Of a stretch of DNA of 64,000 bases, positions 656 to 51,828 are shown in pieces. The position numbers and the translations under genes were made by a program. The stretch lies in assembly GCF_011045215.1 (NCBI RefSeq), contig NZ_CP049201.1; one strand, written 5' to 3'. Under the pieces are notes generated by a model. It saw only the letters and a program-made list of their open reading frames with translations, made no database searches and was not told where the DNA came from. Every line of letters starts with the position of its first letter. Position 1 is the first letter of the stretch. This DNA is from Escherichia coli. GTDB lineage: Bacteria > Pseudomonadota > Gammaproteobacteria > Enterobacterales > Enterobacteriaceae.

Positions 656-1663
656 GTGAAAAAGCAATGGATTGTAGGCACTGCGCTGTTTGTGTTGATG
701 TCTGGTAATGTCTGGGCAGGTGGCGAACCGCCAACTGAAAATATCTTAAAAGATCAATTCAAAAAGCAGTATCACGGCATTCTCAAGCTTGATGCCATCA
801 CCTTAAAAAACCTTGATGCGAAAGGTAATCAGGCCACCTGGTCAGCAGAAGGCGATGTTTCTTCCAGCGATGATCTCTATACCTGGGTCGGTCAGTTGGC
901 AGATTACGAACTGCTGGAACAGACCTGGACGAAAGATAAACCGGTAAAATTCTCGGCGATGTTAACCAGTAAAGGAACGCCCGCGTCTGGCTGGACGGTG
1001 AACTTTTACTCTTTTCAGGCGGCAGCCAGCGATCGTGGTCGGGTGGTCGACGATATCAAAACGAATAATAAATACCTGATCGTGAATAGCGAAGATTTCA
1101 ATTATCGTTTTAGTCAGCTTGAGTCAGCGTTGAATACCCAGAAGAACTCGATTCCTGCGCTGGAGAAGGAAGTGAAAGAGCTTGATAAGAAAATGGCAGC
1201 GGCGCAGAAAGCAGCGGATGCATATTGGGGAAAAGATGCAAACGGCAAGCAAATGACCCGCGAAGACGCCTTTAAAAAAATTCACCAACAGCGTGATGAG
1301 TTTAATAAACAGAACGATAGCGAGGCGTTCGCGGTTAAATATGACAAAGAGGTTTATCAACCGGCGATTGCGGCATGTCATAAACAGAGTGAAGAGTGTT
1401 ATGAAGTGCCGATTCAGCAGAAACGAGATTTCGATATCAACGAACAACGGCGACAGACTTTTCTGCAATCACAAAAACTTAGCCGTAAATTGCAGGATGA
1501 CTGGGTAACGCTCGAAAAAGGGCAATATCCGTTAACGATGAAAGTTTCAGAAATAAACAGTAAAAAAGTCGCGATTTTGATGAAAATTGACGATATCAAC
1601 CAGGCTAATGAACGCTGGAAAAAAGATACCGAACAACTGCGGCGCAATGGGGTGATTAAGTAA
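656..1663 (+). CDS. yggM: Secreted protein of unknown function, YggM-like (GTG start, signal peptide)
   Basis: 335-aa ORF with N-terminal signal peptide (MKKQWIVGTALFVLMSGNVWAG); length and N-terminus match my recollection of YggM; adjacent to ansB. Confidence 0.75.
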   Translation: MKKQWIVGTALFVLMSGNVWAGGEPPTENILKDQFKKQYHGILKLDAITLKNLDAKGNQATWSAEGDVSSSDDLYTWVGQLADYELLEQTWTKDKPVKFSAMLTSKGTPASGWTVNFYSFQAAASDRGRVVDDIKTNNKYLIVNSEDFNYRFSQLESALNTQKNSIPALEKEVKELDKKMAAAQKAADAYWGKDANGKQMTREDAFKKIHQQRDEFNKQNDSEAFAVKYDKEVYQPAIAACHKQSEECYEVPIQQKRDFDINEQRRQTFLQSQKLSRKLQDDWVTLEKGQYPLTMKVSEINSKKVAILMKIDDINQANERWKKDTEQLRRNGVIK

Positions 1664-1678
1664 CTCATGTTAAGTGCC

Positions 1679-1720
1679 TTTGCCGGATAATATAAAAAGT
1701 TATCCGGCAAATTATTTTTC
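1679..1720 (+). terminator. Putative terminator after yggM
   Basis: Hairpin tgccggataa-N10-ttatccggca followed by aattattttt. Confidence 0.5.
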
Positions 1721-3020
1721 ACATTAGCCCTAGTAGCTGTGGAATGAACAAGGATATTTGCGGAATGTAAGTGATCATCATCAACGCTACTAGCAATGCA
1801 GCATAAAATGGCAGCAATGGTTTGATTAAATGTTGAATCTTCACACCCGAGATAGAACAACCAACAAATAACGCACTACCCACCGGCGGTGTTAACAGCC
1901 CAATACAAAGGTTGGCCACCATCATAATACCGAAATGTACAGGGTCCATTCCCAGCTCTTGTGCAATCGGCAAGAAGATCGGTGTAAAGATTAGTACAGC
2001 CGGTGTCATGTCCATAAAGATGCCGACAATTAATAAGACGATATTAATCAGCAGCAATATGATCAGTGGGTTATCAGAAATCCTCATCAATGCGTCGCTG
2101 ATCATATAAGGAATATCAGCATTGGTCATTGCCCAGGACATGCCCACGGAAAAACCGATCAACAGTAATACAATCGAAGTGGTAACAACCGATTCCAGAA
2201 TCAGTTTGGGTAAATCGCGCCATTTCACTTCCCGGTAAATCAGCACCGAGAGAATAAATGTGTAGACAACGGCAATTGCTGACGCTTCAGTTGCGGTAAA
2301 AATGCCGCCCAGAATGCCGCCCATCACAATGAACACCAGAAGCAAACTTGGTAGGGCATCCAGAAACGCTTTACAGGCCTGAGCAAAGGTTGCTCTATCT
2401 GAAAGTGGGTAACCACGGCGTTTAGCAATAATGGCGCAGACAACCATTACCGCGAGCCCCATTAAGATCCCTGGCAAATATCCGGCCATAAATAGCGATG
2501 CTACGGAAACGCCGCCAGCGGTCAGGGAAAACACAATTAACACGTTTGAGGGCGGTATCAGTAATCCAGTAATACAGGATGAGACGTTTACAGCGGTAGA
2601 AAATGCCGGATCATAACCTTCTTTGGTCTGAATGGGATTAAGTGTGCCACCAACGGCAGCAGCTGCCGCAACGGCTGAACCAGAAATGGAACCAAACATC
2701 ATATTCGCCAGGACGTTCACATGACCAAGCGAACCAGGAACGCGGCCAACCATTACCTGGGCGAGGTTAATCAAACGTATCGCAATACCGCCGCTGTTCA
2801 TCAGCGTTCCGGCAAAGATGAAAAAGGGGATTGCCAACAGGGCAAAGTTATCCAGTCCATTAGCCAGTCGTTGCGAAACAGTGATTGCCGCGATATCCCA
2901 GGGAAACATCAAAAGCAATGAAGCTACAGTGGCAATACCGATTGAGAACGAAATGGGCACACCAATAAAGACCAGCACAAAAAAACAGCCAAACAGTGTA
3001 ATCGCGATATAACTATCCAT
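1719..3020 (-). CDS. TRAP transporter large permease subunit (DctM family)
   Basis: 433-aa highly hydrophobic multi-TM protein; tightly coupled to the DctQ-like and DctP-like genes upstream on the same strand; family assignment from sequence character and operon context, no HMM run. Confidence 0.8.
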   Translation of the reverse strand: MDSYIAITLFGCFFVLVFIGVPISFSIGIATVASLLLMFPWDIAAITVSQRLANGLDNFALLAIPFFIFAGTLMNSGGIAIRLINLAQVMVGRVPGSLGHVNVLANMMFGSISGSAVAAAAAVGGTLNPIQTKEGYDPAFSTAVNVSSCITGLLIPPSNVLIVFSLTAGGVSVASLFMAGYLPGILMGLAVMVVCAIIAKRRGYPLSDRATFAQACKAFLDALPSLLLVFIVMGGILGGIFTATEASAIAVVYTFILSVLIYREVKWRDLPKLILESVVTTSIVLLLIGFSVGMSWAMTNADIPYMISDALMRISDNPLIILLLINIVLLIVGIFMDMTPAVLIFTPIFLPIAQELGMDPVHFGIMMVANLCIGLLTPPVGSALFVGCSISGVKIQHLIKPLLPFYAALLVALMMITYIPQISLFIPQLLGLM

Positions 3021-3532
3021 TAACTGGCCTCCTGCTCAGGTTGTTTCAGTTGTTGAATGCTTTGGTTAATAAAACACAAGGCATAAAACATCATCACCAC
3101 TCCACTTAATGGCAGAATGATATATACGTATCCCATCGGTATTTGCATAGCGGCAGATACCTGAGATGTTGCCAGTGTTTTATCAATTAACTTCAGGCCA
3201 CCAGTCACAATGACCGAACCGGCAAAACCTAAAATGAGAACGTTAATGACTATACTAAGAAGTAATTGCTTGCGTTTATTCAAGGCGAGAGCAAATAAAT
3301 CAATAGAGAGATGTCGCTGCGCGCCGACGGTATATGCAGCACCTAATAATCCTACCCAGATCATCAAAAAGCGTGCCAGCTCATCGGTTAATGTACTTGG
3401 CTGGTTAAGTACGTAGCGGCTAAATACTTGCCAGACTACGCATACAACCAGAGCAAGCATGACGGCGACAGAAAACGCGGCAATGACGCGGTCTACCGCA
3501 AGTTTCAGGCGGTTAAATATCATTGTAAGCAT
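3020..3532 (-). CDS. TRAP transporter small permease subunit (DctQ family)
   Basis: 170-aa 4-TM-like protein between SBP and large permease; start/stop overlap with the DctM-like gene. Confidence 0.75.
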   Translation of the reverse strand: MLTMIFNRLKLAVDRVIAAFSVAVMLALVVCVVWQVFSRYVLNQPSTLTDELARFLMIWVGLLGAAYTVGAQRHLSIDLFALALNKRKQLLLSIVINVLILGFAGSVIVTGGLKLIDKTLATSQVSAAMQIPMGYVYIILPLSGVVMMFYALCFINQSIQQLKQPEQEAS

Positions 3533-3567
3533 CTTGGAAAATCAGGGCCAGAGACTGGCCCGGAATA

Positions 3568-4554
3568 TTATTGAGCAGCGTTGTCGAATTTCTCTAACAA
3601 AGCAGCTTGTTTTGGATCTTTTTTGAAGTCGTCAAACAGAGGTTGCACGGCTTTACGGAATGGCGCTTTATCCACTTTTACAATTTCCCCCCCCATAGCT
3701 TTCGCCTGAGCACGTGTGTCAGCGTCAATTTTTTCCCACAATTTTTGTTGATAAGCTTCGGATTTCTTCGCCGCTGTTTCAAGGATTTGTTGCTGTTCCG
3801 GGGTTAATTTATTCCATGTTTTGGTGGAGATAACCAAAAAGTCAGGAATTGAGGCGTGTTCATCTTCAGAAAAGACTTTGGCAATTTCAATATGTCGAGT
3901 CTGCACCCAGGAAGGCACGTTATTTTCTGCGCCATTTACTACACCTTGCTGCATCGCAGTATAAACTTCGCCAAATGAAATTGGAGTGGGTGAACCACCC
4001 ATCAGTTCAATCATTTTGATGGTGGTCGGACTTGGCTGAACACGAATTTTCAGTCCTTTAAGATCTTCTGGCTTTGTAATCGGTTTTTTCGCATAGAAAC
4101 TGCGTGTACCCGCTACATAAGCTGATAAAGCAAAAAAGCCTTTGTCTTTTGTTGAGTCCATAATTTCTTTACCAACTTCACCAAAAACAACTTTGTTGAA
4201 GTGCGCCTGATCTTTAAATAAGAACGGCAAATTATAGATAGCATAAATATTATCAAAAGACTCCAGATCACTGGCGGAACCTTTGGTCATATCCAGTGCG
4301 CCATTTTGCAACAATTCCATAGTTTCTCGCGCATTACCCATCTGGCTGCTGGGATAAATACGGATCACCATATTACCTTTTGACAGCTGTTTTACCTCTT
4401 TCGCCAGCTCTTCAAAACTCTGATGTACAACATGACTTCTTTCCAGGTTGTGTGCTAACTTTAACGTCACTTTTTCTGCGGCGTTTACGCCAGTGCTAAC
4501 CAGAGCCAGCAAGGATGCGCAGACTAATGAGCGGGTAAATGACCTCATCTTCAT
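3568..4554 (-). CDS. TRAP transporter substrate-binding protein (DctP family), secreted
   Basis: 328-aa protein with signal peptide (MKMRSFTRSLVCASLLALVSTGVNAAE); first gene of P-Q-M operon. Confidence 0.8.
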   Translation of the reverse strand: MKMRSFTRSLVCASLLALVSTGVNAAEKVTLKLAHNLERSHVVHQSFEELAKEVKQLSKGNMVIRIYPSSQMGNARETMELLQNGALDMTKGSASDLESFDNIYAIYNLPFLFKDQAHFNKVVFGEVGKEIMDSTKDKGFFALSAYVAGTRSFYAKKPITKPEDLKGLKIRVQPSPTTIKMIELMGGSPTPISFGEVYTAMQQGVVNGAENNVPSWVQTRHIEIAKVFSEDEHASIPDFLVISTKTWNKLTPEQQQILETAAKKSEAYQQKLWEKIDADTRAQAKAMGGEIVKVDKAPFRKAVQPLFDDFKKDPKQAALLEKFDNAAQ

Positions 4555-4840
4555 AAAAAAACTCCCTGTTGAAGGATGGAAATTGGTTGATATCTAATTG
4601 TGCTTATCAGTGCTTTGTGCGACAAATTGGTTAACCTGTCTGACAACTTGTCTATGTTTATCACAACTTGAAATAAAGTCAGGAATTAAATATTAATTTT
4701 GTGCGCCAGGTTGTACATATTTATAATCAATGAATGATTAGTAAATATTCACTAAATATATATAATAAATGTCGTCGATATTTATTCAGTAAGAAATATA
4801 TTTCTGCCGAGGTTAATTAACGGGGGGGATAAAAGAAGTG
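4555..4840 (-). promoter_or_regulatory. AT-rich upstream region of the TRAP operon (promoter and possible regulator/H-NS sites)
   Basis: ~290 bp strongly AT-rich non-coding DNA directly upstream of the DctP-like gene; no ORF of convincing size. Confidence 0.4.
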
Positions 4841-4866
4841 ATTAATGCGCCCGCAGGCGCATTAAT
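4841..4866 (-). terminator. Perfect 11-bp inverted repeat at hemW 3' end (probable hemW terminator)
   Basis: attaatgcgcc-cgca-ggcgcattaat, 2 nt downstream of hemW stop; RC strand continues cacttctttt. Confidence 0.45.
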
Positions 4867-4868
4867 GA

Positions 4869-6005
4869 TTACTCAGCGAGGAATAATTCAAGAAGTGAGT
4901 TTAAGAATAATTTACCATGTTCCGTTATCTGCCAGTAATCCGCACATTCGGTGAGATAACCCTGAGCGATAGCTTCGTCTAACTGTGGGCGAATCACTGC
5001 TTCAGAAAGGCCAGTATACTGACTAAACTCCACGCGCGGCGCAGGTTCCAGCAACCGGAAGCGATTCATAAAGAACTCAAACGGCTTATCTGCGGCTTCT
5101 ACATCACGCTGGCTTTCCAGATACCTTCCTTGCATAAAACCACGCGGATGGCGCGTTTTGGTGGTACGCAGAATGCGCCCATCCGGGAAGGTCACTTTGC
5201 CGTGTGCGCCGCAGCCAATACCGATGTAGTCACCAAAGCGCCAGTAGTTGAGATTGTGCTGGCACTGATAACCGGGTTTGGCGTAAGCGGAGGTTTCATA
5301 TTGCTGATAACCCGCTGCGGTTAATAACTGATGCCCCTGTTCGAATATATCCCACAACGCGTCATCGTCCGGCAGTACAGGAGGGCGCGAGCCAAACAGC
5401 GTATTAGGTTCGATGGTCAGTTGATACCAGGAAAGATGCGGCGGATTCAGTTCAATGGCCTGGCGTAGATCGCCAAGTGCCTCTTCCAGTGATTGATCCG
5501 GCAACCCATGCATCAAATCAAGGTTAAAGCTACGTAACCCTAAACCGCTCGCCAGCTTTGCCGCTCGTTTCGCTTCTTGCGGGCCATGAATACGCCCAAG
5601 TCGTTTCAGCTTTTCTTCGCTAAAACTCTGCACACCAATAGAGATGCGGTTCACACCAGCACGCTGATAATCGACAAAGCGATCGGCTTCTACCGTTCCA
5701 GGGTTCGCTTCCATAGTAATTTCTGCATCCGCTGCCAGCGGCAAACGCGCACGCACGCCGTCCAGCAGCGTTTGCATCGCCGGGCCGGAAAGCAGGCTCG
5801 GCGTACCACCGCCAATAAAGATTGTCTTTACTTCACGGCCCTGAGCGTAAGCCACATCGTTGTCCAGATCGTTAAGCAGATGCTGAACATAATCGTCGTG
5901 CGGCACTTCTCCTTTCAACGCGTGAGAGTTGAAATCGCAGTACGGGCATTTCTGCACGCACCACGGGATGTGAATGTAGAGACTCAGCGGCGGTAATTTA
6001 ACCAT
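4869..6005 (-). CDS. hemW: Radical SAM heme chaperone HemW (YggW)
   Basis: 378 aa; CxxxCxxC radical-SAM motif ([12 protein letters not shown]); conserved position next to rdgB. Confidence 0.9.
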
Positions 6006-6591
6006 TACGTAAAGCGTCCAGCAGCAGTTTCAATGCCTGACCACGGTGGGAAATGGCGCTCTTTTCTTCGCGGGTCAGTTCGGCAGCGGTTTTCCCTTCG
6101 GAAGGTACGAAGAAGATTGGATCATAACCAAAGCCACCAGTGCCCGCCGGTTCACGAGTAATCACGCCCGGCCAGCTGCCGTGGCACACCAGCGGGGTCG
6201 GATCTTCCGCGTGACGCAGATACACCAGCACGCAGTGGAAACGCGCCTGACGTTGGTCGTCCGGTACGTCTTTCAGTGTTTCCAGCAGTTTTTGCAGATT
6301 CTTTTGATCGGTCGCGTCTTCACCGGAATAACGTGCGGAGTAAATACCCGGCGCGCCGCCAAGCACATCTACCGCCAGACCAGAGTCGTCAGCAATTGCA
6401 GGTAAACCGGTCACTTTTGCCGCATGGCGCGCTTTCAGAATCGCGTTTTCAATAAAGGTCAGGCCGGTTTCTTCAGCGGAATCTACGCCGAGATCTGTTT
6501 GGGCCACGATATCAAGACCGAAGTCGCTAAGCAGCGACGCCAGCTCACGCACTTTACCGGCATTGCCGGTTGCGAGGACAACTTTTTGCAT
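5998..6591 (-). CDS. rdgB: dITP/XTP pyrophosphatase (Ham1 family)
   Basis: 197 aa, [16 protein letters not shown].. Ham1-type N-terminus; overlaps hemW start by 8 nt. Confidence 0.9.
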
Positions 6592-6598
6592 AGGATAC

Positions 6599-6889
6599 CT
6601 AATTAATTAACGCCGCGATTTCTGGCGGGATTTGTTGCGGATTAATGATTTTAATTTGTTTGTGGCGGCCAAGTTCGCCTTTTTCAATCACCACCTGGCT
6701 TTTGGCAACCCGGAATTGCTTACCGAGAAACTTCACCAGATGGCTGTTGGCCTGGCCGTCAACCGGCGGCGCGGTTATGGCGACTTTTACCTCGTCGCCA
6801 TGTAAACCGACAATAGAATCACGGCTGGCTTTCGGCTGAATATAAAGCCGTAAAACCAGACCGTCATCGTTAACTGTTACGGCACTCAT
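6599..6889 (-). CDS. yggU: DUF167 family protein YggU
   Basis: ORF track gives 100 aa from an upstream ATG; I prefer the internal start [10 protein letters not shown] (96 aa) that overlaps the yggT stop. Confidence 0.75.
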
Positions 6890-7452
6890 AACGCCATCCA
6901 CAGCCCCGGCAGCAGCATGTTTCCGGTTGCCTGTAATACTTCTGCGACACCCATATTGATGACATACAGCAGCAGAACGAGGATCATCGGCGAGAAATCA
7001 ATCCCACCCATTGCTGGTAGCAAGCGGCGAATCGGGCGCAGCAGCGGATCGGCCAGCTGAATCAGCACGTATTCAATCGGGCTACGGCCCTGGCTTACCC
7101 AGCTCATAATCGCCATCACCAGCAGGACCCAGAAAATCAGCAGGCCGATGGTTTTCAGCAGAATCAGTAAACCGGCAATCCAGATGATTGGCAGGAAGGT
7201 CACCACTTTAAACAGCACGATGGCTTTGATAAAACTGAGAATATAGGCAACCAGCAGCGAGGCGCTGTCAATGGGTCCCATTGCCGGAATAACGCGGCGC
7301 AGTGGCCCGATAATTGGCTGTGTTACCTTCACTACAAACTGTGAGAAGGGGTTGTAAAAATCACAATGAGCCCACTGCATCCAGATGCGTAATAACAGCA
7401 CCATGGTATACAGCTCAATGACCGTTGAAAGCAGGAAAGTCAACGTATTCAT
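6886..7452 (-). CDS. yggT: YggT family inner membrane protein
   Basis: 188 aa, hydrophobic; conserved yggS-yggT-yggU order. Confidence 0.85.
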
Positions 7453-7469: not shown

Positions 7470-8174
7470 TTATTTTTTAGAGTAATCACGCGCACCAAAA
7501 ATTGCAGTGCCGATACGAACCATCGTGCTACCTGCCGCAATGGCGGCTTCCATATCGTCCGACATTCCCAGAGAGAGCGTGTCGATATGCGGGTAGCGCG
7601 TTTTCAGTCCGGCAAATGCTACAGCCATTTGACGTGCAACTTCAAACTGCCTTACATATTCTGACTCAGGCGCAGGGATTGCCATCAGCCCGCGCAGACG
7701 TAAACGCGGTAGTTCAGCGACCGCAGCTGCCAGCTCGTCCAGTTCTGCCAGTTGAATCCCGGACTTACTGTTTTCATCACTAATATTAATTTGAATCAGT
7801 ACGTTAAGAGGGGGAAGTTCTGCCGGGCGCTGATCGTTGAGGCGGGTAGCAATGCGCAAACGGTCGATGGTATGACACCAGTCGAAATGCTCTGCCACCA
7901 GGCGGCTTTTATTAGACTGCAACGGGCCAATAAAATGCCATTCTAATCCTGTTACGCCCAGTTCCTGAAAGTGGCGAATTTTATCTACCCCTTCCTGAAC
8001 GTAGTTTTCACCAAATTGACGCTGCCCGGCATCAATGGCTTCTGCGATGGCGCTCGCAGGTTTTGTTTTACTGACTGCAAGCAGCGTAATTTCTTCTGGA
8101 GAACGGCCGCAACGCGTTGCAGCCGCTGAGATTTTGTCCCGGACCTGTGCCAGGTTATGCGCAATATCGTTCAT
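7470..8174 (-). CDS. yggS: PLP-binding homeostasis protein (COG0325)
   Basis: 234 aa; conserved K in LLAVSKTKP; matches YggS. Confidence 0.9.
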   Translation of the reverse strand: MNDIAHNLAQVRDKISAAATRCGRSPEEITLLAVSKTKPASAIAEAIDAGQRQFGENYVQEGVDKIRHFQELGVTGLEWHFIGPLQSNKSRLVAEHFDWCHTIDRLRIATRLNDQRPAELPPLNVLIQINISDENSKSGIQLAELDELAAAVAELPRLRLRGLMAIPAPESEYVRQFEVARQMAVAFAGLKTRYPHIDTLSLGMSDDMEAAIAAGSTMVRIGTAIFGARDYSKK

Positions 8175-24638: not shown

Positions 24639-24654
24639 TTAGCATTTTGGGTAA

Positions 24655-24681
24655 AAAGGTCGCTTCGGCGACCTTTTTTAT
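24655..24681 (+). terminator. tktA rho-independent terminator
   Basis: aaaggtcgc-ttcg-gcgaccttt followed by ttttatt. Confidence 0.6.
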
Positions 24682-43435: not shown

Positions 43436-44431
43436 TTAATCAAAATATTGCGTCTGGATAAATTCACTGAGCTGCCGCAGGCCGGTGCGCGGTGAGAGCG
43501 TATTGTTTTTGACCGCTAAAAGCGTCTGGCGGTAATAGCGATCGAAATCTTCATTCGCGAACAGGTGATTCAGTACTTCTTCTTCGGTCTGCTTACGCAG
43601 CCATTCCACCGATTGTTGTTGCCGCACTTGTTGTAAACGACCACTGGCAGTTAGCGCGGTTTTGAAGTCGATGATGGCGTGCCAGATCTCATCGATTCCA
43701 CGTTTTTCCAGTGCGCTACAAGTCAGAACCCGTGGCTGCCATTCGTCGTATTTACGTCGCAGAATATGCAGGGCACTCTCGTACATATGCCGGGCAATGG
43801 CGATATTGGTATGGTTATCGCCATCGTCTTTGTTGATTACGATCAGATCAGCCACTTCCATCAGCCCTTTTTTAATGCCCTGCAGATCATCGCCGCCACC
43901 GGCAATTTGCAACGAGATAAAACAGTCCACCATGCGGGCGACTTCCGTTTCCGACTGCCCGACGCCAACCGTTTCGACAATCACTACGTCATAACCCGCC
44001 GCTTCGCATAACAGCATTAATTCCCGCGCTCGCTGACTGGCACCGCCCAGATGACCGGAGGATGGTACCGGGCGAATAAACGCCGTCTCGGCACGCGCCA
44101 GGTCATTCATGCGGGTTTTATCCCCGAGAATGCTACCGCCAGTGACTGGACTGCTGGGATCGACCGCAATAACCGCAACCTTTAATCCATCACGAATCAA
44201 CAACATGCCAAAGGCTTCAAGAAAGGTACTTTTCCCCGCGCCGGGTGTGCCGGTAACGCCCAGTCGCAGGGCGTTACCGCAGTACGGCATAATGGCATCA
44301 AGCAGTTGCGTACTTAGCGCCTGATGACGCGGGTGACGGCTTTCCACCAGCGTCATGGCCTGGGCGAGTGTGGCACGCTCACCCTGACGTAAGCGGCGAA
44401 TACTTTCTGCCAGCGTGGCTTCATTAATCAT
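43436..44431 (-). CDS. argK: MeaB/ArgK-type G-protein chaperone of methylmalonyl-CoA mutase
   Basis: 331 aa; P-loop GTPGAGKST. Confidence 0.9.
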
Positions 44432-50424: not shown

Positions 50425-50575
50425 ACGGTAAAGCCCTCACCGAAGCGAGGGCTTGAAGGAGAAGGGTTATGATGCGACTTGCCATCATACTGATTGTACT
50501 GTTACTCATAAGTTTCCCAGCTTATTAACAGTCAGTCACAGGGGAGGAGTAATCCTCCCTTACCCTTACTCACTA
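50425..50575 (-). ncRNA. Sib antisense RNA (antitoxin), copy 1, boundaries approximate
   Basis: Inferred from Ibs/Sib architecture (antisense sRNA spanning the toxin ORF); conserved hairpins at 50433..50452 and 50605..50631; ends not determined. Confidence 0.4.
50469..50528 (+). CDS. Ibs-family type I toxin peptide (19 aa)
   Basis: atg atg cga ctt gcc ... MMRLAIILIVLLLISFPAY; aggaga RBS upstream; too short for the ORF track. Confidence 0.7.
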   Translation: MMRLAIILIVLLLISFPAY

Positions 50576-50817
50576 AATTAGGTTAAAGAATCAACGATGT
50601 CAATCAGGGCGATGCGGGATGCATCGCCCTGAACCAATCTTGCTGAAGGCCATCTCATCGCCCGCGTTCATTGCGGTAATAAATCCCGTTTTCCCACAAT
50701 AAATTCATACCTTGCATCAGGTTTTACGAGCGCACTCGAAGAAAAGATTTAAAGTAAGATCAATGCGTTGTGGTTATTAAAAGAGAGTTTACGATGGCGG
50801 GGCAGCATGGGGCTGTA

Positions 50818-50968
50818 ACGGTAAAGCCCTCACCGAAGCGAGGGCTTGAAGGAGAAGGGTTATGATGCGACTTGCCATCATACTGATTGTACTGTTACTG
50901 ATAAGTTTCGGAGCTTATTAACAGTCAGTCACAGGGGAGGAGCAATCCTCCCTTACCCTTACTCACTA
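50818..50968 (-). ncRNA. Sib antisense RNA (antitoxin), copy 2, boundaries approximate
   Basis: By analogy with copy 1. Confidence 0.4.
50862..50921 (+). CDS. Ibs-family type I toxin peptide (19 aa), copy 2
   Basis: MMRLAIILIVLLLISFGAY; same RBS context; differs from copy 1 at one residue (P17G). Confidence 0.7.
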   Translation: MMRLAIILIVLLLISFGAY

Positions 50969-51021
50969 AATTAGGTTAAAGAATCAACGATGTCAATCAG
51001 GGCGATGCTGGTGTGTCGCCC

Positions 51022-51644: not shown

Positions 51645-51828
51645 GGAATCTCCGAGATGCCGCCGCAGGCTGTAACCCTTGAACCCTTGGTTCAAGGTGA
51701 ATGTGTCGTCGCAGTTTTAAGGCTTCTCGGACGGACCGAGCATGCTCACCAACCGCGGAGCGCCACATTCTTGTGGTATGAAATATCGGCTCAGGGGACT
51801 GGCCCGCTTGCGAACATCTCAGAGAAAT
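51645..51828 (-). ncRNA. ssrS: 6S RNA
   Basis: Reverse complement reads ATTTCTCTGAGATGTTCGCAAGCGGGCCAGTCCCCTGAGCCGATATTTCATACCACAAGAATGTGGCGCTCCGCGG...GGAGATTCCCT, matching 6S RNA as I recall it; immediately upstream of ygfA. Confidence 0.85.

Follow-up and report, generated by a model that had tools for sequence, protein, structure and literature searches.

A perfect palindrome behind hemW in TRAP-carrying Escherichia coli as the probable 3'-end terminator hairpin of the yggS-hemW operon

A perfect palindrome separates hemW from the genes for a DctP-type TRAP transporter in the window (the entire 64-kb stretch of Escherichia coli DNA analyzed here), which raises the question of whether it ends the transcript of the upstream genes, is bound by a protein, or marks the edge of an inserted segment, all three of which had been put forward in a preliminary description of the site. 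The palindrome spans 26 bp at positions 4841-4866 and reads ATTAATGCGCC-CGCA-GGCGCATTAAT, with two perfect 11-bp arms and a 4-nt spacer, exactly as originally reported. It starts 2 nt past the hemW stop codon, since the minus-strand open reading frame (ORF) at 4869-6005 places that codon at 4869-4871, and the adjacent run of seven G residues is present on the plus strand at 4822-4828. The palindrome pattern had no match among 100 dinucleotide shuffles, and perfect inverted repeats with stems of 11 bp or more and loops of 3-8 nt were found at four distinct sites in the window, compared to a mean of 0.03 expected by chance from 30 first-order Markov simulations. A perfect 11-bp inverted repeat, CGGTAACGCCC-N7-GGGCGTTACCG, was observed at 44251-44279 within a long minus-strand ORF (43436-44431) rather than at the end of a gene. 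Also recognized on the minus strand were two Sib antitoxin RNAs and 6S RNA (ssrS), at 50453-50603, 50846-50996, and 51645-51828, with a perfect 12-bp hairpin at 50604-50632 abutting one of the Sib copies.

The genomic context places the palindrome at the end of a gene cluster. The hemW product was assigned to TIGR00539 HemW (E = 1.3e-141), in agreement with the RefSeq annotation of E. coli loci, and hemW is the last gene of a co-directional minus-strand cluster including rdgB (5998-6591), yggU (6599-6901), yggT (6886-7452), and yggS (7470-8174), for which the coordinates are those of the ORFs and the names were taken from homologous annotated E. coli loci. The ORFs are tightly packed or overlap, and this spacing suggests that yggS-yggT-yggU-rdgB-hemW are co-transcribed. 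Downstream of hemW, an AT-rich intergenic region of 314 nt leads to the TRAP transporter genes dctP (3568-4554), dctQ (3020-3532), and dctM (1719-3020), also on the minus strand.

Read as hemW-sense RNA, the order of elements is UAA-UC-AUUAAUGCGCC-UGCG-GGCGCAUUAAU-CACUUCUUUUAU-CCCCCCC. Folding and a terminator scan identified a minus-strand hairpin at 4841-4866 whose 11-bp stem places a 5-bp core of G-C pairs on six A-U pairs; a C-G pair closes its UNCG-type tetraloop, C(UGCG)G. Directly 3' of the stem is the U-rich tail CACUUCUUUUAU (4829-4840, minus strand), in which the U-tract is interrupted, and just past the tail is the C7 run of the hemW-sense RNA (4822-4828), a hypervariable homopolymer. 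The 26-mer of the hemW-sense strand had a folding energy of -16.6 kcal/mol (z = -4.3 vs shuffles), compared to -14.8 kcal/mol with a CGCA loop on the plus strand. The plus-strand sequence after the hairpin, GAUUACUCAGCG, is not U-rich, so the U-rich tail is confined to the hemW-sense strand. In accordance with this asymmetry, a consensus scan found the site to be terminator-like on the minus strand only, the tail CACUUCUUUUAU satisfying its rule of at least five T in the 8 nt beginning 0-2 nt past the stem, and six U are present within the 10 nt that follow the stem.

The palindrome most probably represents the 3'-end terminator hairpin of the yggS-hemW operon transcript. This was one of the options in the preliminary description, and it is the one favored by hairpin stability, strand asymmetry, position, and the homologs with a canonical U-tract in Salmonella and Leclercia that are described below. 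The element combines a stable, GC-containing stem-loop on the sense strand with a site after the last stop codon of the cluster and ahead of a dctP gene that has its own, hemW-independent upstream block. Once RNA polymerase had passed the hemW stop codon, the nascent RNA would fold into the 11-bp stem, and the stem with its C(UGCG)G tetraloop followed by the pyrimidine- and U-rich CACUUCUUUUAU would act as a Rho-independent terminator. The same hairpin may also serve as a barrier to 3'->5' exonucleases, and termination at this point would insulate the downstream dctPQM genes, whose conserved regulatory region sits ~115-285 nt further on. Termination at the hairpin in vivo and its efficiency are predictions from sequence, and in Escherichia termination may be only partial since the U-tract is set apart from the GC core by AAUCAC. 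One of the other three perfect inverted repeats counted in the window, AAAAAGGTCGC-TTCG-GCGACCTTTTT at 24653-24678, likewise has a perfect 11-bp stem and a 4-nt UNCG loop and lies 15 nt past the end of a long ORF; A- and T-runs flank its stem as in a classic bidirectional terminator, whereas the tail of the hemW hairpin is weaker and on one side only. No literature on this TRAP locus or on a hemW terminator was found, and no Rfam family reached its gathering threshold. The best Rfam match, STnc130 on the plus strand (23.9 bits vs 55, E = 0.39), was rejected as a chance hit since it is sub-threshold and absent from the homologous Salmonella loci.

The sequences that follow hemW in other genera pointed to a terminator. 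The TRAP-carrying Salmonella locus reads UAA-ACACG-AAUGCGCC-UGCG-GGCGCAUU-UCUUUU (AATGCGCC-TGCG-GGCGCATT followed by TCTTTT as DNA), and a Leclercia locus reads UAA-UGCCUG-AUGCGCC-UCCG-GGCGCAU-UUUUUAU (ATGCGCC-TCCG-GGCGCAT followed by TTTTAT). Both hairpins are like that of Escherichia in their GCGCC/GGCGC core, UNCG-type loop, C-G closing pair, position, and U-rich 3' tail, and Salmonella has a C6 run in the region equivalent to the C7 run of the window. They differ in that their U-tracts (UCUUUU and UUUUUAU) abut the GC stem, which is canonical terminator anatomy, whereas the Escherichia stem reaches 11 bp through A-U pairs (AUUAAU/AUUAAU), and ~7 nt (AAUCACU) lie between its core and the UCUUUU run. 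The Escherichia hairpin looks like the Salmonella and Leclercia element with those ~7 nt added between GGCGCAUU and UCUUUU and two changes on the 5' side, which together would have created three extra A-U pairs and made the palindrome perfect. In an approximate d'Aubenton-Carafa-type scoring, implemented here with modern energy parameters such that the zero threshold is indicative only, Escherichia scored -9.5 compared to +21 for Salmonella and +30 for Leclercia.

The three homologous hairpins share a common stem to which the hairpins of the remaining genera could not be aligned. Hairpins of this unalignable kind follow hemW in Kluyvera, Klebsiella, Scandinavium, Pluralibacter, Pseudescherichia, and Enterobacter, starting 0-14 nt past the stop codon, and those of Kluyvera, Klebsiella, Pluralibacter, and Pseudescherichia are without a U-tract, while REP-type repeats occur just past hemW in Cronobacter and in TRAP-less E. 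coli. The end of hemW thus retains a hairpin even as the sequence that forms it is replaced, and this is the behavior of an RNA structural element and not of a sequence-specific protein site.

The REP/BIME elements of K-12-like, TRAP-less E. coli occupy the same place, ~11 nt past the hemW stop codon, and are imperfect palindromes also capable of forming a 3' hairpin. REPs are, however, multi-copy with a GCCGGATGCGGCG-type consensus, whereas the palindrome is single-copy and of unrelated sequence, occurring at a single locus in each of 1483 E. coli genomes and nowhere in the others, and it does not belong to this family. The preliminary description had proposed that the hemW 3' flank of genomes lacking the TRAP genes would show whether the palindrome was simply the hemW terminator; the same palindrome was not found there in E. 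coli, where REP elements take its place, and it was the comparison between genera that favored the terminator. A repeat in the hemW-yggM gap of a TRAP-less Salmonella (TTAATGCGCC-GCCGGCAA-GCGCATTA) was first taken for the same palindrome without TRAP genes. It was not counted because its homology is ambiguous, the 3' arm overlapping the yggM stop codon and aligning to the yggM-proximal sequence of TRAP-carrying Salmonella.

The suggested search for further copies, made with a 30-nt query against 5426 complete E. coli genomes, identified the palindrome in 1483 of them, at one locus each and always beside hemW, the two places returned per genome being both strands of one palindrome. TRAP-less E. 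coli genomes gave no match. The 30-mer was exact in 977 genomes and had one mismatch in 506, and exact searches with 66-nt queries found the perfect form in 941 genomes and a form with GGCGC changed to GACGC in 505. Across 100,044 species, each represented by one genome, a scan with TTAATGCGCC-N4-GGCGCATTAA, a pattern blind to the GACGC allele, gave two matches, Escherichia sp. MOD1-EC7003 and a 4-kb contig of a "Collinsella" metagenome-assembled genome. The latter was rejected as a copy outside Escherichia because the contig is 96.5% identical to the window and is Escherichia-type DNA. The palindrome was not found in phage records; a single viral contig contained GTTAATGCGCCAATTGGCGCATTAAC with no further similarity to the window and was considered an unrelated palindrome, and two "plasmid" records (one of 4.9 Mb and one of 103 kb carrying hemW) look like chromosomal sequence.

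The GACGC allele separates the two strands. In the hemW-sense RNA, the change is C to U opposite G, giving a G·U wobble with the 11-bp stem intact (-13.9 kcal/mol), whereas on the other strand an A·C mismatch leaves the upper stem open (-8.3 kcal/mol). The allele thereby spares pairing in the hemW-sense RNA at the cost of the DNA dyad, which fits an RNA hairpin, although it is probably a single inherited event and hence weak evidence. The neighboring homopolymer also varies, with G7, G8, G11, G13, and G7AG6 forms in different E. coli. In the three GACGC strains inspected (L016, L017, and L019), G11, G13, and G7AG6 runs replace part of the U-tract, leaving CACUUCUUCCCC..., and about one-third of E. 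coli carriers combine the G·U change with a U-tract cut to UUCUU by expansion of the C-run. The shortened U-tract and the G·U change make selection for an efficient intrinsic terminator look relaxed. In E. coli AREA_492, the hairpin is naturally disrupted by an IS1B (748-1520 of that locus) that sits in the left palindrome arm, in the gap separating hemW and dctP.

These features bear on a second reading, unlikely but to be taken seriously, in which the hairpin mainly stabilizes the RNA 3' end or forms a processing barrier against 3' exonucleases without terminating on its own, and termination occurs further downstream, e.g., wholly or partly by Rho on the C-rich, G-poor stretch. The interrupted U-tract and negative discriminant score of the Escherichia element are consistent with it, as are the C7-C13 run just downstream, which may provide a C-rich, G-poor context, and the REP elements at the equivalent site in K-12-like strains and Cronobacter, given that REPs can play this role. 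Since the hairpins of several other genera also have no U-tract, the function conserved at this position could be to protect the 3' end and not to terminate transcription. Against this reading, the Salmonella and Leclercia homologs are textbook intrinsic terminators, and the Escherichia tail, with its six U in 10 nt, is still accepted by the simple scan. A variant of the terminator reading, rated as distinctly improbable, is that the Escherichia hairpin is the ancestral hemW terminator turned leaky and tunable, with slippage in the C7-C13 run and the G·U allele setting the read-through into dctPQM; it was considered because the extension of the stem moves the U-tract off the GC core and a hypervariable C-run follows immediately. 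Alternatively, the hairpin could interfere with termination of hemW translation, as it lies only 2 nt past the stop codon.

The suggestion of a protein-binding site also fared poorly. With its perfect 26-bp symmetry, AT-rich outer halves, and intergenic location ahead of dctP, the element has the appearance of an operator for a dimeric regulator of dctPQM or hemW, but the palindrome is centered ~300 nt upstream of the dctP ATG and is not found with the TRAP operon in other contexts. The operon is located away from hemW in Buttiauxella, downstream of a gene for a YdgH/BhsA-like protein, and on a Citrobacter freundii contig with IS66 fragments upstream, while in Pluralibacter ansB lies between hemW and dctP. 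The palindrome is absent upstream of dctP in all three, while hemW of Pluralibacter retains a different hairpin in the gap to the convergent ansB. A separate block within ~170 nt of the dctP start codon is instead conserved in nine aligned sequences from eight genera and in all contexts; it consists of AGCGCACAAAA, the half-site TGTGA, and a pair of short dyads of the form TGTCWGACA-N12-TGTCRYACA. In the window, its minus-strand components are GGCGCACAAAA (4697-4707), the CRP-like TGTGA half-site (within 4650-4669), and the GntR/FadR-like dyads TGTCAGACA (4637-4645) and TGTCGCACA (4616-4624), so that 4616-4707 contains credible candidate regulatory sites of the TRAP operon, with the palindrome more than 130 nt beyond the block. 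The palindrome is not co-conserved with this dctP promoter region; unrelated sequences occupy the equivalent spot in other genera such as Kluyvera, Klebsiella, and Scandinavium, it was never present in more than one copy in the 5426 E. coli genomes, with no sign of a regulon, and the common GACGC allele breaks the DNA dyad while keeping one-strand RNA pairing. An operator is consequently very improbable. Just past the G-run, a perfect 10-bp palindrome, GTTAATTAAC (4812-4821), was observed that resembles AT-rich response-regulator boxes. It is kept in the TRAP-carrying E. coli loci inspected and not in Escherichia sp. MOD1-EC7003, which reads GTTAATTTAC at the equivalent position.

The remaining question concerns the TRAP segment itself, which had been described as a putative island with the palindrome at its junction. 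In E. coli, dctP adjoins hemW in 1471 of the 5426 complete genomes, and in the remaining, K-12-like genomes yggM is directly downstream of hemW with REP elements between and no palindrome. The yggS-yggT-yggU-rdgB-hemW→dctPQM order also occurs in Salmonella enterica, Kluyvera, Klebsiella, Leclercia, and Scandinavium, such that the hemW→dctPQM synteny extends over at least six genera, with DctP orthologs in other genera showing 84-90% identity. This synteny indicates that the TRAP genes are not an island but belong to an ancestral arrangement that many E. coli lineages have lost. The segment carries dctP, dctQ, and dctM only, with no mobility genes, and a search for terminal direct or inverted repeats linking its ends (1560 to 4960) returned only short AT-rich matches at chance level. 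The GC content of the TRAP genes (42-46% vs 51% for the window) is moderately lower.

The alignments place the boundary between the TRAP-carrying and TRAP-less haplotypes inside the 3' end of hemW rather than at the palindrome. Over the final 48 nt of hemW, the two E. coli forms agree at 34 of 48 positions (71%), with all 14 differences synonymous and an identical C-terminus, and divergence is elevated ~180 nt into the gene (4869-5050 in the window). This is the level of divergence seen between genera. The TRAP-carrying form of the last 48 nt is nearest to Salmonella (39/48) and the TRAP-less form to Pseudescherichia and Cronobacter (41/48), suggesting that recombination with a distant relative introduced one of the two haplotypes. 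Escherichia sp. MOD1-EC7003 is a mosaic of both. In the 1-kb region compared, the window was 99.8% identical to E. coli OkiPb01695 from bovine feces, ~95-96% to other TRAP-carrying E. coli, and ~96.7% to Escherichia sp. MOD1-EC7003, which suggests that it derives from a divergent Escherichia lineage.

An insertion or recombination scar, or a terminal structure of a mobile TRAP island, is thus barely credible despite the strict co-occurrence of the palindrome with the TRAP segment in E. coli and the somewhat lower GC content, as the segment has neither integrase or transposase genes nor matching terminal repeats, its synteny is common to six genera, the haplotype breakpoint lies within hemW and away from the palindrome, Salmonella and Leclercia have a hemW-end hairpin with a homologous core, and the palindrome is absent from phage records, with the "plasmid" matches apparently chromosomal. 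At the other end of the segment, the convergent stop codons of yggM (plus strand) and dctM (minus strand) enclose a second perfect inverted repeat at 1679-1711, TTTGCCGGATAA-N9-TTATCCGGCAAA, which on the plus strand runs into TTATTTTT. The repeat is probably the yggM terminator and possibly that of dctM as well, and together with the hemW hairpin it would give the TRAP segment ordinary terminator hairpins at both ends.

As the probable terminator of the yggS-hemW operon, the hemW-end hairpin is an ordinary example, not described before, of a familiar class of element, and its significance beyond annotation is small. Mildly interesting aspects are the degraded U-tract beside a hypervariable homopolymer and the synonymous differences between the two E. 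coli haplotypes at the hemW 3' end, which are as large as those between genera. In TRAP-carrying Escherichia, the yggS-hemW transcript would end at the hairpin, which can now be told apart from the candidate regulatory sites of dctPQM, and the TRAP genes of Escherichia are better regarded as an ancestral, frequently lost segment than as an island.
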